A DNA stretch of 64,000 bases from Candidatus Poribacteria bacterium (lineage in GTDB: Bacteria > Poribacteria > WGA-4E > PCPOR2b). Location of the stretch: positions 3,840,001-3,904,000 of the forward strand of contig OZ242326.1 of assembly GCA_965208325.1 (NCBI GenBank), written 5' to 3'. This document shows, piece by piece, positions 14,073 to 19,561 of the stretch. Both the position numbers and the translations under genes were made by a program. Numbering within the stretch: position 1 is the first letter of the stretch; each line of letters opens with the position of its first letter. A model generated the notes under the pieces. It saw only the letters and a list, made by a program, of their open reading frames with translations, searched no databases and was not told where the DNA came from.

Positions 14073-14606
14073 GTTCTTGTAGGTTGGGTAGAGCGGAATT
14101 CACCAAAACGGTGTCAGCAGCAGTTTTGCGCTCCAAAATTCAAATCATGCTTGGTTGTAATTAACGCGTAGCGAAACCCAACTCTTTTGAAAACTCCGGC
14201 ACCCAAAACGATTACCGAACGAAAAACCCGTCCCATTTACGCGAAAACTCCGCCGCATTACTTGCCAAACAATTAACACATACAATCCAATTTCTAAATT
14301 CCCCCCTGATAAGGGGGGCTAGGGGGGTTGACACCCGTTTTTATCTGGATAGCGCACTTCAGGTTGAAATTCGCCGATCCATAAGTCATCGAAGGGCATT
14401 GTCAGCATCTACACCACTGTAGGCGGGGCATCTTGCCCCGCAAAGTAGTAGGCACACGCCGTGTGCCGTAATCTTCTGTAAAACCACACTAACCATACAC
14501 AGCAATCGCGTAATCAAGCGATCGAATAGGGCGCAATAGTCTTCGGCGCCTGTATCCTGTAGGAGCAATCTCCGAATCGCGGTACTCATTTAAAACCGAG
14601 TTTTTT
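14073..14606. repeat. Composite GTAG-family REP cluster whose last hairpin is split by the DUF1670 element
   Basis: GTAGGTTGGGTAGAGCG, CCCCCCTGATAAGGGGGG, GTAGGCGGGGCATCTTGCCCCGC, GTAGGCACAC.CCGTGTGCC, GTAGGAGCAATCTCC. 14353-14600 is near-identical to 17863-18100. Confidence 0.85.
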
Positions 14607-14689
14607 ATAGTTTGTATCAAATGACCCCATGAGTTAAACTGATAACAGATGTTATTTCCATCAATTACCATGAATCCATGGAGGTCATT

Positions 14690-15490
14690 ATGAAACCACA
14701 AAGTCATTCAAACTACGGTATCAATCGTCTGGAATCAAAGACGGCGAGAGCGGCAATTATTCAGAAGATTGCGTCAGACTTCAATCTGATGCCTATCCTT
14801 GCCGAAGCCTACTATAATCAGATTTCTTCCTACTTTGCCCAACACGCCGATATTAAACTCACATCAGGCCAAATCTGCTATGAAGCCGTAGCCGCCGACG
14901 AACCCGCAGGTAAACACATTGCCTTAGCCAAAAAGGTCTCCTGCCAACTCACCCTCAATGATGTGCACACCGATCTTGAGGTGTTAGCCAACTATGGACT
15001 TGCAGGACTCAGACGACATCGAATCTTACGGTTAACCAAACAAGCCTATGACCAAGACGCTTTGCTCAGCTATGAAGATTTAGCGGTGCTATTAACCACC
15101 AGCCCGGCGACCGTCAAACGAGACATTCGACAGTTGAAACAGCAAGGGTTTTTTGTAATGACTCGCGGCGCCAAACACGACATGGGCCCCGGCATCTCTC
15201 ATAAAACCCAAATCCTAGAACTGTACTTTAAAGGCTATCAATTCACCGACATTGAGCGAAAGACGAACCACACCGAACGCGCCGTGTTGAGATACTTGCG
15301 TAATTTCACTCAGGTAGCAACCCTCCATCATCAAGACTTTCCAAAGGAACAGATACGGCTCATCACCCATCTCTCTGACCGATTGATTCGTGAGTATCTC
15401 TCCCTGTATGATAAATACGAACATACAGAGCGAATGACGACTTTACTTCATCCTGAACCCGTTGATGAAAAAAAGGGGGAAAACTCATGA
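14690..15490 (+). CDS. DUF1670-family protein A (HTH-containing)
   Basis: GGAGG RBS; motifs GQI.Y.AV...EPAGK, R..RI.RL..QAYDQ.ALLS.EDLA.LL, TRG..HDMGPG.SHK, H...AV.RY. Confidence 0.85.
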   Translation: MKPQSHSNYGINRLESKTARAAIIQKIASDFNLMPILAEAYYNQISSYFAQHADIKLTSGQICYEAVAADEPAGKHIALAKKVSCQLTLNDVHTDLEVLANYGLAGLRRHRILRLTKQAYDQDALLSYEDLAVLLTTSPATVKRDIRQLKQQGFFVMTRGAKHDMGPGISHKTQILELYFKGYQFTDIERKTNHTERAVLRYLRNFTQVATLHHQDFPKEQIRLITHLSDRLIREYLSLYDKYEHTERMTTLLHPEPVDEKKGENS

Positions 15491-16380
15491 GTAAATCATT
15501 GACTCGAACCGAAATCAACGAGAAGAAAATCAGACGTATCAATGATAAATCGTTGCGGCAGTTGCTGATTCATCGCTTTATCAATTCCTATGGGTATGAC
15601 AAAGGCGAAGTGACTGCCAAAGCCATTGTCGATGACATCGTCAAAACTATTGAAGACTATTTCCTGATTCGCTTGCCACTTGATAAACTCGCCGCTGGAG
15701 AACAACTTCCTGATGAACGAATGCTTAGCTATGGTCAACTGGTTTGGATGGCTGTGCCGATTGACGAATATCCACAGAGAGCCAAGTCAATCGTTAAAAC
15801 CCGCATGAAGCCTGTGGTTTTAAGCTTTGTGGCCCCCGAGGACATTGAACACTATTACAGCGGCTTCAGCTCTCGTGAACTCAGAATTCATCGATTGGTG
15901 CGATGGTGTTATCAAGCCTATGACCAAGGGGCATTGTTGACTCAACTAGACCTGGCTGTGTTGCTCAACGTCCGCGACCCAGTAGTGAGTGAGTATGTCA
16001 ACGAGTGGCAAAGCACCAGTGGAAAAATCTTGCCCACTCGCGGCAACATTCACGATTTATCGGCGGCAATTACACACAAGAAGGAGATTATTACCCTTTA
16101 TCTACAAGGGCACCTGACTCCGACCATTGCTGCCAAAACCAAGCACTCCAAAGAAGCTGTTGACCGATACATCCATGATTATGAGTCCGTTAAGATTGTT
16201 CGCACCGCTACCGATGACATTGACAAAATCTCTCAGATTACCAAACTTTCCAAGCGCGTCATCTCTCAATATCTCGACCTAATTCCTCAACATTCGCTGA
16301 ATGACATCAACGCAAACTTGGAAGACGGCAAAGATAACACCGTGCCGTCCAGTTCCAAACCTACAGGAGACTTGCAATGA
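15487..16380 (+). CDS. DUF1670-family protein B
   Basis: ATGA overlap with protein A; paralogous motifs GQLVWMAV, QAYDQGALLTQLDLAVLL, PTRGNIHD, THKK, HSKEAVDRY. Confidence 0.85.
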   Translation: MSKSLTRTEINEKKIRRINDKSLRQLLIHRFINSYGYDKGEVTAKAIVDDIVKTIEDYFLIRLPLDKLAAGEQLPDERMLSYGQLVWMAVPIDEYPQRAKSIVKTRMKPVVLSFVAPEDIEHYYSGFSSRELRIHRLVRWCYQAYDQGALLTQLDLAVLLNVRDPVVSEYVNEWQSTSGKILPTRGNIHDLSAAITHKKEIITLYLQGHLTPTIAAKTKHSKEAVDRYIHDYESVKIVRTATDDIDKISQITKLSKRVISQYLDLIPQHSLNDINANLEDGKDNTVPSSSKPTGDLQ

Positions 16381-16698
16381 CAGCATACGCCTATTATTGC
16401 TTAGACATGGGAAAACAACGTCTCTTTCTTTGGCATCGGCTTGGCACGCCATAGCCATTTTGGTATACTTTGTCACGCTTCTAGCCAAACCAAATGAATT
16501 TCTTGACGGATAAGCTAATTAAGCCAACATAACTCGCTCATTTGATGATGGCTCGAAGTCAGTAACCACGCGCATTCCAACTATCATCAGGTCATTTGAT
16601 ACTATTTCTTCAAAACTCGGTTTCTCCTAATCCTATGATTTCAGCCTGAACAATGTCTCAGGCAAAATCGTAATATACCCGAAAGGAGTTGAAATACT

Positions 16699-17496
16699 AT
16701 GCCAATCAAAACTTTCCGATTCATGATAGTTCTCTTGGTAATCGTCGCTGTGTTTGGACGAATGTGTATCGCCGGTACCTGGATTGACGATTTCAGTGAC
16801 CGAAACCTTCCAGATTGGGGGCCTCCTAGGGGGCCGCAACATTTTGGGGGCGGTCGAATAAATGACGGGGTTAACGCAGGTGTTGTTGATGGACACTTCC
16901 ATTATGAAGGGAAAAAACAACGAACAAGTCATAATTTGAAGAATTGGGGATTAGGGAAAATCCAAGATTTTTCGCTCGAGTTGAAGTTTATGTTTAGAGA
17001 CATCCGAGACAGCCTGGAGAGTTCTTGGACAATTCGATATGCCTCATTTAACGAAGAAAAGGGGGATTTCGACGGGTTTATGAGCTTTTTGTGGTATCCC
17101 GATTCCGAAGGGAAACCCAACGTTTCATTTATTACGATTGATCGCTACGAGTTGAGAGTGCCGGAGGATTTTCCAGAATTGGGGCAAGGCTGGATGCCAG
17201 ATCTCGCTGCAATAGACAGCTTTGCATTCGAAGAAAAGGTCTGGTACACGTTGAGGATTACACGCGAAGAAAACCAATATACTTTTTCGATGGACGATGT
17301 AATTTTATTCGCAGAAGATGATACAGTGCCGATGGGTACGATTGAGCTGTCATTTCATGGATGGTTCACCGTCTGGTTGGATGATTTTACGGTGACCGGC
17401 CCCGATGTTCCGAATGGAGGACCTGGCTTTATGGGAGTCAATCCATCGGCAGAGGGAGTAACGACGATGTGGGGAAAGCTCAAAGCACAGAACTGA
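16699..17496 (+). CDS. Secreted beta-sandwich (concanavalin/DUF1080-like) protein with C-terminal TTMWGKLK motif
   Basis: Signal peptide, 'WIDDFSD', 'WYTLRI', 'G.I.L.......WLDDF.V.GP', ends GVTTMWGKLKAQN. Confidence 0.75.
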   Translation: MPIKTFRFMIVLLVIVAVFGRMCIAGTWIDDFSDRNLPDWGPPRGPQHFGGGRINDGVNAGVVDGHFHYEGKKQRTSHNLKNWGLGKIQDFSLELKFMFRDIRDSLESSWTIRYASFNEEKGDFDGFMSFLWYPDSEGKPNVSFITIDRYELRVPEDFPELGQGWMPDLAAIDSFAFEEKVWYTLRITREENQYTFSMDDVILFAEDDTVPMGTIELSFHGWFTVWLDDFTVTGPDVPNGGPGFMGVNPSAEGVTTMWGKLKAQN

Positions 17497-17637
17497 CAGA
17501 AACCGTTCTCCCGAATATTCTCCCTTTTTCCAAGGGATATTAATCGAGCGGATAGCGAAGGCGAAAGTCTCCTTGTGCAATTTAAAACCGAGTTTTTTCT
17601 TCAAAACTCGGTTTCTCCTAATCTTAGTTTGTGGTCA

Positions 17638-17862: not shown

Positions 17863-18143
17863 GCACTTCAGGTTGAAATTCCCCAATCCATAAGCCATCG
17901 AAGGGCATTGTCAGCCTCTCCACCATTGTAGGCGGGGCATCTTGCCCCGCAAAGTAGTAGGCACACTCCGTGTGCCGTAATCTTCTGCGAAATCACACTA
18001 CCCATCCACCGTAACTGCGCAATCAAGCCATCGAATAGGGGCGCAATAGTCTTCGGCGCCTGTATCTTGTAGGAGCGATCTCCGTATCGCGGCACTTATT
18101 TGAAACTGACTATTTTCTTCAAAACTCGGTTTCTCCTAATCCC
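17863..18143. repeat. Composite REP block, uninterrupted counterpart of 14353-16633
   Basis: Near-identical to 14353-14606 joined to 16606-16633; a third copy lies at ~19310-19561. Confidence 0.85.
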
Positions 18144-18244: not shown

Positions 18245-19014
18245 ATGCCAATCAGAACATTCCGATTCATGATTGTCCTCTTTGTAACCGTCGCTGTGCT
18301 TGAACGAATGTGTATCGCTGGTACGTGGATAGACGATTTCAGTGACCGAAACCTTCGAGATTGGGAAGGCGGTCTAATAAATGACGAGGTTAGCGCAGGT
18401 GTTGTTGGTGGACACTTCTATTATAGAGGAAAAAATGAACGAGCAGGTTATTATATGAAAAATTTGGCATTAGGGAAAATCCAAGATTTTTCGCTCCAGT
18501 TGAAGTTTATGGTTAGAAACCTCCGAGACCTACGGCAGGGTTTTTTGACTATTGAATATTCTTCATTTAACGAAAAAACGAGGGGTCACGACGGGATTAT
18601 GCAATTTCGTGGTATCCCCATGGGGAACCCAAAATTAACATTATGGATGTTACAATTGATCGCTTCGAGCTGAGAGTGCCGGAAGATCAGCCAGAATTGG
18701 GGCAAGGCTGGATGGCAGATCTCGCTGCAAAAGACAGCTTTGCATTCGAAGAAAAGGTCTGGTACACGTTGAGGATTGCACGCGAAGGAAACCAATACAC
18801 TTTTTCGATGGGCGATGTTATATTATTCGCAGAAGATGATTCAGTGCCGATGGGTAAGATTGAGCTGTTATTTTTTGGAAGGTGTACCGTCTGGTTGGAT
18901 GATTTTATCGTGACCGGCCCCGATGTTCCGAATGGAGGCCCCGGCTTTTTGGGAGTCAATCCATTGGCAGAGGGAGTAACGACGATGTGGGGAAAGCTCA
19001 AAGCACAGAACTGA
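18245..19014 (+). pseudogene. Frameshifted paralog of 16699-17496
   Basis: ORFs 18245-18673 and 18643-19014 align to the N- and C-halves; one base is missing near 18605-18609. May be a sequencing artefact. Confidence 0.75.
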
Positions 19015-19015
19015 C

Positions 19016-19561
19016 AGTTCTTGTAGGTTGGGTTGAGCGGGTTTCACCAAATGATGTACAATTTCACATTTCGCCCTAGGAGTCTAACGACGTTCAAGAT
19101 CCGATGGGCAGAGCGTAACCCAACGCTTTTCGCATTTACGCATGTTTTCCGATAAACCAAAAACTCCGCAATACCCAAAAGCGTTGGGTTCGCTACACCT
19201 TAACAATTTGGGCACATATTCAAATACCGATATCCATTGCGCATTTTTCGCGTCTTTCATTTAATCCGCTTAACCCAACCTACAAAAACTAATTGCAAAT
19301 TATTGCGCCCAATCCATAAGCCATCGACGGGTATTGTCAGACGCTACCCCATTGTAGGCGGGGCATCTTGCCCCGCAAAGTAGTAGGCACACTCCGTGTG
19401 CCGTAATCTTCTGTGAAATCACACTACCCATACACCGCAACCGCGCAAGCAAGCGATCGAATAGGGCGCGATAGTCTTCGGCTCCTGTATCCTGTAGGAG
19501 CGATCTCCGAATCGCGGCACTTATTTTAAACCGGGTGTTTCTGAGAAAACTCGGTTTCTCC
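19016..19561. repeat. REPIN-like unit plus composite REP block
   Basis: Same REP modules as 17638-18143. Confidence 0.85.

Follow-up and report, generated by a model that had tools for sequence, protein, structure and literature searches.

Insertion sequences (ISs) are classified by the chemistry of their transposases and, to our knowledge, every established IS family relies on one of a small number of catalytic folds. Elements of the HUH type lack terminal inverted repeats (IRs), and those of the IS200/IS605 family carry sub-terminal hairpins at both ends. TLC-phi, for which XafT is a factor, is an integrative element that exploits Xer. Here, we describe a 1999-bp element whose only genes are a tandem pair encoding DUF1670 proteins. 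The element lies in a 64,000-nt stretch, referred to as “the window”, of the chromosome of a sponge-symbiont Poribacteria bacterium (a 4.71-Mb single contig, 95.6% complete). We describe its structure, its insertion sites, its relatives, and the enzymes that might move it.

The element's DNA is most like that of the IS1111 family (e.g., ISPa11, ISEc11, and ISKpn4), part of the IS110 superfamily. In passages of Siddiquee et al. (2024, PMC11187229), IS1111 elements are described as follows: the sub-terminal IRs, perfect or nearly so, measure 11–13 bp and have a 7-bp left and a 3-bp right extension outside them, the transposase gene is followed by a long non-coding region, and the target is not truly duplicated. 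According to the same passages, these elements form a circular intermediate with a junction promoter, and the DEDD transposase binds an RNA from the non-coding region that has two short target-complementary segments (PMC11187229). The targets are folded sequences, and in the case of ISPa11 they are repetitive extragenic palindromes (REPs) (PMC11187229). Passages of Tobes and Pareja (2006, PMC1525189) list ISs that target REPs; the set consists of ISPsy8, ISPa11, ISPpu9, ISPpu10, ISRm22, and ISRm19. The element described here shares with that set specific insertion into REPs, and with IS1111 a 13-bp IR, 7- and 3-nt extensions, a 225-nt non-coding tail, strict site and orientation specificity, the lack of a clear duplication, and folded targets that include REPs. 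Unlike the ISs called “REP-recognizer transposases” in the passages of PMC1525189, it has no recognizable transposase.

The chromosome carries four copies of the element, each 100% identical across all 1999 bp. All four interrupt the same 30-nt palindrome, leaving AAACCGAGTTTTTT on the left and CTTCAAAACTCGGTTT on the right, at the same point in the hairpin loop and in the same orientation. The surroundings of the copies differ: L001 and L003 have related flanking repeat blocks, and the flanks of L002 and L004 are unrelated beyond the hairpin halves. Element boundaries (Table 1) were defined by comparing the four filled sites with 84 empty hairpins and with an orthologous empty site in a sister genome of the same genus, G003. 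At that syntenic locus, an upstream gene (92% identity), the left block (86%), the hairpin, and a downstream gene (81%) follow one another, the hairpin is uninterrupted, and the flanks have a two-base overlap. The window holds element-free versions of the site as well. The left-flank block at 14374-14605 has two further, element-free copies, at 19309-19540 (89% identity) and 17883-18114 (68%), and the right-flank blocks recur after 18182. A contig from an unrelated sponge metagenome (run X6) joins position 14605 to 16605, and could derive from a paralogous block.

Comparison of filled with empty sites reveals no long target duplication. Filled sites have 6 T to the left of the element and 2 T to its right (3 T for L004), and a 7-T loop is found in eight genomic hairpins and in the orthologous empty site. 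The target duplication is thus 0–2 bases, all T. We conclude that the element is mobile and has been recently active; because the four copies are identical, we consider it to be moving now. A first-pass annotation of the window, made from its sequence, had proposed a mobile element within a REP hairpin whose arms form the flanks, with an intact copy and variants of the palindrome and an element-free duplicated block nearby, and no long duplication. All of these proposals are upheld by the genome-wide comparison, and the search that it suggested for extra copies yielded the four identical ones.

Table 1. Features of the element, its target, and related relics (positions are those of the window unless prefixed by C1)
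Feature	Position	Strand	Notes
Whole element	14607..16605	+	1999 bp; tips ATAG...CTAT; right boundary uncertain by up to 2 T (16606-16607)
Left terminal extension ATAGTTT	14607..14613	+	7 nt outside the IR; present in 24/24 aligned copies whatever the target
Left sub-terminal IR GTATCAAATGACC	14614..14626	+	13 bp, perfect
Candidate weak promoter of the gene pair, TTGTAT-17-TAAACT	14612..14640	+	Overlaps left IR; predicted from sequence
ORF1	14690..15490	+	DUF1670 (PF07900), 266 aa, E 7.6e-64, 215.5 bits; alternative start 14678
ORF2	15487..16380	+	DUF1670, 297 aa, E 1.1e-59, 201.9 bits
Non-coding right end	16381..16605	+	225 nt, ORF2 stop to right end
Outward sigma-70-type promoter (predicted), TTGGCA-17-TATACT	16441..16469	+	TG before −10; 10/12 consensus positions, best site in the region
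Inner 9-mer TCATTTGAT	16538..16546	+	Direct copy, 54 nt inside the terminal one
Imperfect hairpin, TGATGATGG (16543-16551) / CTATCATCA (16581-16589)	16538..16589, with inner 9-mer	+	Weak support
Right sub-terminal IR GGTCATTTGATAC	16590..16602	+	13 bp, perfect match to left IR
Right terminal extension TAT	16603..16605	+	3 nt; TATTT follows the IR in 24/24 aligned copies
Target left half	14593..14606	+	Arm AAACCGAG and loop T-run; host DNA
Target right half	16606..16623	+	TT, CTTC, arm AAAACTCGGTTT; host DNA
Intact unfilled hairpin	17585..17614	+	Variants near 18102-18132 and 19528-19557
Gene-less derivative, 394 bp, both ends	G000:C1:2139014-2139408		
Solo right ends of related elements	C1:2718953, 2657334, 2325643, 4459142, among others		

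The element contains no genes other than the DUF1670 pair. Both encoded proteins are full-length members of the Pfam family (PF07900; curated cut-off 25 bits), which has no assigned function; a full-text literature search, with subscription journals and ISfinder outside its reach, found no paper naming DUF1670, PF07900, or IPR012872. The open reading frames (ORFs) overlap by an ATGA at 15487-15490, comprising the ORF1 stop codon and the ORF2 start codon, an arrangement that implies translational coupling. ORF1 and ORF2 are paralogues, with 34% identity over 186 aa (E 2e-27). The most likely start of ORF1 is the position given in Table 1, behind a GGAGG at 14680-14684, and most of its homologues are 264–266 aa long. 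Searches of Pfam and NCBIfam found no DDE, DEDD, HUH, serine-recombinase, or tyrosine-recombinase domain in either protein; only DUF1670 and helix-turn-helix (HTH) families match, and the Y1 transposase model (PF01797) does not. No IS model in NCBIfam, which includes models for recognized IS families, fits the proteins, the best match being to an HTH stretch of the IS1 transposase (E 0.012). Among PHROGs, the proteins match HTH regulators only; PADLOC gave no match, and neither did a tblastn search of a plasmid collection with ORF2.

The ends of the element are highly conserved. We aligned 24 elements, i.e., the window copy and 23 loci from relatives for which both ends were found. In all 24, the left end reads TTATAGTTT followed by the IR, and the right end reads IR followed by TATTT. 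Because ATAGTTT and TAT are constant in 24/24 copies in different targets, they belong to the element. The right extension could be 3–5 nt, as the next bases are T in element and target alike. In one locus at which only a left end was found (L017), the extension is TTAGTTT. A 9-mer within the left IR, ATCAAATGA (14616-14624), has a counterpart in the right end, where a further direct copy lies inside the terminal one (Table 1). The 13-mer IR occurs exactly 10 times in the genome: the four element copies, with one at each end, account for eight of these, and relics of related elements for the other two. No conventional transposase in this genome is bounded by the same IR. Since the IR is confined here to DUF1670 elements and their relics, there is no helper with the same ends. 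The element therefore differs from miniature inverted-repeat and other non-autonomous elements, in that it has two conserved, intact genes and the genome has no transposase-bearing master with the same ends. It also differs from IS630/Tc1-mariner elements, in that it has no DDE domain and its flanking bases are T rather than TA.

These findings agree with most of what the first-pass annotation had said of the element itself: a perfect 13-bp IR around two translationally coupled DUF1670 paralogues, the absence of a DDE, DEDD, HUH, or serine-recombinase gene, and an anatomy of the IS1111 type, the last of which matches the passages of PMC11187229 in IR length, extensions, 3′ non-coding region, and lack of duplication. 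Its suggestion that relatives be checked for conserved IR-bounded ends and empty sites was productive, since both were found. By contrast, its idea that ATAGT is a foreign coupling sequence, as left by Tn916-type elements, is rejected by the constancy of the extensions. Its inference that the DUF1670 pair is itself the recombinase is taken up below as a hypothesis.

The non-coding right end is conserved over its last ~145 nt, which can be aligned in 13 distinct relatives with a mean column identity of 82%. The predicted outward promoter is strongly conserved: TATACT is invariant in 24/24 aligned copies, and TTG(G/A)CA is present in 22/24. At the left end, a −10-like TAAACT or TACAGT is kept in the 24-copy alignment, and the candidate left promoter falls below the threshold of the promoter scan. 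RNA-library contigs of a relative (run X17) cover the second half of ORF1 through the right end, which is compatible with transcription and defines no start. A structured RNA in the right end receives little support. The consensus fold has 13 pairs, one of which shows a compensatory change; the folding energy of the tail is no better than that of shuffled sequences (z +0.94); and Rfam has no family for the right end, giving only a chance snoRNA row (E 0.31). A reading of the element as a group I or group II intron or an IStron was rejected, there being no Rfam intron match.

The target palindrome is AAACCGAGTTTTTTCTTCAAAACTCGGTTT, the two halves of which flank the element. Unfilled copies number 50 exact and 84 near-exact (≤4 mismatches), or 88 when filled sites are counted. 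The genome encodes a 189-aa Y1 (HUH) transposase (G000:C1:3321744-3322310) with His-Tyr-His and Tyr-Ile-His-Leu-Asn-Pro motifs, and this gene has one target hairpin directly upstream and a hairpin cluster downstream. Passages in two papers (PMC2817692, PMC3333891) describe such a hairpin-flanked arrangement for REP-associated tyrosine transposases. The target hairpin is therefore a genuine REP, i.e., an abundant extragenic palindrome with a Y1 gene flanked by copies. Elsewhere in the genome, the hairpin forms regular arrays with a spacing of about 159–216 bp. A second REP-like hairpin family, with core GGCGGGGCATCTTGCCCCGC, is more abundant, with 70 exact copies and 296 with ≤4 mismatches, one of them at 14419-14441 of the window. 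Variants of this second hairpin lie on both sides of the genome's second Y1_Tnp gene (G000:C1:1955941-1956273). The stretch at 14387-14473 has a very high summed contig depth in both DNA and RNA runs.

Relatives of the element use more than one type of site. A scan of one genome per species identified 28 loci in about ten Poribacteria genomes, with 82–96% identity to ORF1, a distribution that places the host organism in this phylum. Among the 24 aligned elements, 13 (including the window copy) are in REP-type hairpins, one of which is degenerate, and the orientation is always the same. Ten more lie at the end of an opposite-strand gene, and the remaining one is in another kind of site. At gene ends, the left flank is TATTT or TACTT, which on the other strand is a Lys codon and the first two bases of a stop codon; upon insertion, the element tip provides a new Lys-stop. 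Two near-identical elements in a single genome differ in site type, with L015 at a non-REP site and L016 in a REP. Similarly, L026, which is 94% identical to ORF1, sits at a gene end. Since these elements occupy different kinds of site, the same proteins must use several site types. What the site types share is a T-rich word ending in TT. In three further genomes, insertions directly follow CTATTT-like words, among them an older copy's tip, and hence the preferred target word resembles the element's own right tip.

Relics in the present genome also reflect the gene-end habit. They comprise five solo right ends and the 394-bp gene-less derivative, which retains both ends (Table 1). Three of five relics lie immediately downstream of genes that end in a TIGR04183 type IX secretion tail (28.6–32.2 bits; cut-off 23), and at these the stop codon is supplied by the element tip. 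The other two adjoin no open frame.

Two tandem REP loops (G000:C1:1973077 and 1973528) read TTTTTTATGGTTTTTTTCTTC, conforming to the pattern TTTTTTAT(G/A)GTTTTTTTCTTC. Such a loop is the expected remainder of a 7-T filled site after loss of everything from the left IR through 2 bases past the right IR. Joins between 14613 and 16605 are seen in contigs of runs X1 and X6. Loops of the TTTTTTATGGTTTTTTTCTTC type may be excision footprints, and rare ones: a phylum-wide search for the footprint pattern gave only these two loops and one hit, at the level of a reversed-pattern control.

DUF1670 genes extend well beyond the close relatives. At E ≤ 0.001, a search with ORF1 found 1237 representative clusters (50% identity level). 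Of 121 Poribacteria genomes sampled, 36 contain PF07900, with 1–22 domain matches each (about two per complete element); the domain is also present in one of three other genomes of the same genus and in an archaeal control genome, that of Methanosarcina acetivorans. More than half of the 120 closest homologues are on contigs of about 1–2.7 kb. The gene order ORF1-type, then ORF2-type, holds at all eight distant metagenome loci with a DUF1670 hit (about 32–50% identity to ORF1). The IR core TCAAATGACC bounds seven distant loci (L043-L049), and L050 has a different, 22-nt IR; L045 lies between the arms of a hairpin with a 10-bp stem. The gene pair and IR core are thus kept down to about 40% protein identity, and we conclude that the DUF1670 pair and the ends are inherited together.

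Some homologues are fusions of two or three DUF1670 units, and 12/12 of those scanned have no other domain type. P0130, P0133, P0137, and P0140 (about 930–950 aa) are among the three- or two-unit polypeptides, along with about 25 proteins of 500–660 aa. The existence of these fused forms suggests that DUF1670 units work together. In a distant subfamily (L043:2405-4625 and L044:330-2545), a third gene lies inside the IRs, upstream of the pair. Its 162-aa product combines an HTH_3 domain with a SprT-like metalloprotease domain (motif His-Glu-x-x-His), and may be a regulator or may act on protein-DNA adducts.

How might the element move? The reading that we favor, at a probability of about 0.45, is that it is an autonomous, currently active IS of an undescribed family, with the DUF1670 complex itself breaking and joining DNA. 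ORF1 and ORF2 would most likely act as a hetero-oligomer, given that their genes are translationally coupled and that fused homologues exist. Their HTH arrays would read asymmetric ends, i.e., the 7-nt extension and 13-bp IR on the left, and the inner 9-mer, hairpin, 13-bp IR, and 3-nt extension on the right. The arrays would also read a short, T-rich target, with T-(A/T)-(C/T)-T-T on its left side, presented in REP hairpin loops and also, among sister lineages, where genes with a type IX secretion tail end in Lys-stop. Because the DNA anatomy matches that of IS1111-type elements, excision may proceed, as in IS1111, to a circle, an abutted-ends junction, or a synapse. Site-specific strand exchange would then occur at a TT core common to the right tip and the target, such that insertion adds at most 2 T. 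The conserved right-end promoter would read outward across the junction into the genes. The complex would need an active site of a kind so far unrecognized, and its likeliest seat is the N-terminal domain, for which whole-protein searches give no known-fold match. We hold more tentatively to the broader proposal that the pair represents a new class of transposase or site-specific recombinase, beside the DDE, DEDD, HUH, serine, and tyrosine classes. Such a class would consist of HTH arrays and a small N-terminal domain acting alone, with IS1111-like, orientation-specific insertion, a two-base core, hairpin loops and gene ends as targets, and hosts among both bacteria and archaea.

Several observations weigh against catalysis by the DUF1670 complex, among them the predicted structures of its proteins. 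AlphaFold2 models (ORF1 from 76 sequences, mean predicted local distance difference test [pLDDT] score 90.6; ORF2 from 50 sequences, mean pLDDT 77.3) have a common architecture of three helices, a beta-hairpin, a long helix, a winged HTH, a linker, and two more HTH units. The linker between HTH units is flexible and conserved, with Thr-Arg-Gly ... Ser/Thr-His-Lys. A Foldseek search of the PDB with both models gave nothing at E ≤ 0.001. A structural search against representatives gave best Z-scores of 6.8 (ORF1) and 6.4 (ORF2), all to HTH or winged-HTH domains; the matches include NiaR, TrpR, sigma region 4, small terminase, and the HTH of Tn3 resolvase, to which residues 190-236 of ORF2 align (Z 5.7). 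An RNase H-like fold is not among the structure matches of either model. A profile of 76 homologues searched against PDB sequences likewise has an HTH as its best match (E 0.029). The invariant Arg-Gly, His, and Tyr occupy positions at which resolvase-type HTH domains contact DNA, so in the models they need not be catalytic, and we recognized no catalytic residue in either protein. As modeled, both proteins consist of DNA-binding HTH modules in series, and neither shows a known catalytic fold. Whole-protein match lists barely probe the N-terminal 100–125 residues, and an ESM Atlas search with ORF1 residues 1-100 gave no useful match. The N-terminal domain has a conserved Glu-Pro-x-Gly-Lys loop and, after the beta-hairpin, a Glu-Asp, although the loop is degenerate in the ORF2 of this element. 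No circle junction was found among Logan contigs of four runs, contigs being an assembly product that drops rare forms. A pattern of abutted right and left tips occurs in three of 121 genomes, where it reflects insertions by CTATTT-like words or short relics rather than circles or tandem dimers. Lastly, Y1 transposases are encoded by this genome (two genes) and by 35/36 DUF1670-bearing genomes, making a trans-acting helper possible.

If the DUF1670 complex is not the catalyst, a host enzyme may be. The pair would only recognize the ends and pair them with the target, and would recruit or activate a housekeeping enzyme that breaks and joins DNA, for example an Xer-type tyrosine recombinase or a topoisomerase. 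We regard this as the second most probable reading, though unlikely: both modeled proteins look purely DNA-binding, and a spread of 1237 clusters over bacteria and the archaeon M. acetivorans would fit a universal host enzyme. We know of no host enzyme that acts at such sites. The element is like Xer-exploiting elements (CTX-phi, and TLC-phi with XafT) in having no recombinase gene of its own and in having HTH-type proteins. It is unlike these phages and satellites, which use a single dif site, in being a 2-kb, multi-copy element that uses the loops of a repeat with dozens of copies, 84 of them unfilled, and, in relatives, gene ends. A regular-expression search for dif-like sites returned 61 weak candidates, none of them a clear dif with which to compare the ends. 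There is, nonetheless, precedent for recombinase-less elements with an HTH-bearing activator in passages of two papers (PMC6744903, PMC9226527). A less probable source of the enzyme is an unlinked conventional transposase, with the element being non-autonomous, its ends serving as substrates in trans, and the DUF1670 pair being a regulatory or targeting passenger. The most plausible candidate would be a Y1 HUH enzyme (of the IS200/IS605 or REP-associated type) acting on single-stranded DNA. The element is indeed like IS200/IS605 and other HUH elements in that it inserts by a short specific word, just 3′ of a T-rich sequence that its right tip (CTATTT) resembles, with no clear duplication, hairpin targets, and a fixed orientation. 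Y1_Tnp genes are also present in 5/5 high-copy genomes, in addition to the distribution given above. However, they are found in 107/121 genomes, including 72/85 without DUF1670, so their co-occurrence is uninformative, and none is seen in one DUF1670-bearing genome (G021; 94% complete, 110 contigs). Both Y1 genes in the present genome lie outside the element and are flanked by their own REP families, as is the case for REP-associated transposases. The element differs from IS200/IS605 in that it inserts inside the loop, not beside the hairpin foot, and has a hairpin, weakly supported, at the right end only. HUH elements lack the terminal IRs that here co-vary with the gene pair across the family, and a passenger would not be the sole constant content of the elements examined, in a family of more than 1000 representative clusters.

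Two further explanations have little left in their favor. Given its anatomy, the element could be an IS1111/IS110 derivative moved by a DEDD transposase in trans, with a seeker or bridge RNA from the 3′ non-coding region. The IR, extensions, 3′ non-coding region, lack of duplication, REP target, and fixed orientation all match IS1111 as the passages of PMC11187229 describe it, and an RNA could arise from the conserved promoter in the right end. This explanation is largely refuted and, in our estimation, very improbable. Unlike IS1111 elements, neither the element nor the genome encodes a DEDD/RuvC-like transposase: PF01548 and PF02371, the latter being the C-terminal domain of the IS1111 enzyme, have no matches in this genome, despite its four identical copies of the element, and two HTH-array proteins take the place of such an enzyme. 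Of five other element-bearing genomes tested, four (G003, G081, G097, and G099) likewise gave no PF01548 match. No target-complementary RNA segment was detected. Matches of the non-coding regions to the REP target reach 5–6 nt at most, a length attained by 241–288 of 300 shuffles, and for 12 distinct non-coding regions compared with 24 targets, the mean match to targets of a region's own class (7.24; n = 123) is no longer than that to the other class (7.07; n = 165); such exact-match tests have little power, since published guide segments are short. Guidance of this kind is also at odds with the use of two or three site types, in particular by the near-identical L015 and L016, and with the lack of an Rfam hit. 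Also unlike IS1111, whose promoter is assembled at the circle junction according to PMC11187229 in the passages cited, the element has a complete predicted promoter inside its right end. The other explanation is that the element is not itself mobile and has spread within duplicated, REP-containing blocks, as the related flanking blocks of L001 and L003 might imply. This is refuted by the empty sites and has next to no probability: the flanks of L002 and L004 share only the hairpin halves, the window and the sister genome each have the same block in element-free form, and relatives with the same ends occupy non-REP sites.

Downstream of the right target half, the window encodes a 265-aa protein (16699-17496) with no Pfam match. 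A paralogue of this gene, with 82–90% DNA identity, lies 1.5 kb further on (18245-19014). It is split into two overlapping frames (18245-18673 and 18643-19014), and is probably a frameshifted copy.

The DUF1670 family is widespread, with its 1237 clusters, its presence in 36/121 sampled Poribacteria genomes, and at least one archaeal genome, and genome annotators currently miss DUF1670 elements. In relatives, these elements take the place of stop codons in genes for secreted proteins, and every aligned copy has a strong outward promoter, as predicted from sequence. The combination of IS1111 end anatomy with genes that appear to encode only DNA-binding arrays, and no IS1111 enzyme, sharpens the question of the catalyst. 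With a short element, base-exact ends, and a 30-nt target, that question is directly testable. If the DUF1670 pair catalyzes its own movement, it would represent a hidden, new way of cutting and joining DNA; if a host enzyme is responsible, a small element would be borrowing it at dozens of sites. Either would be new.

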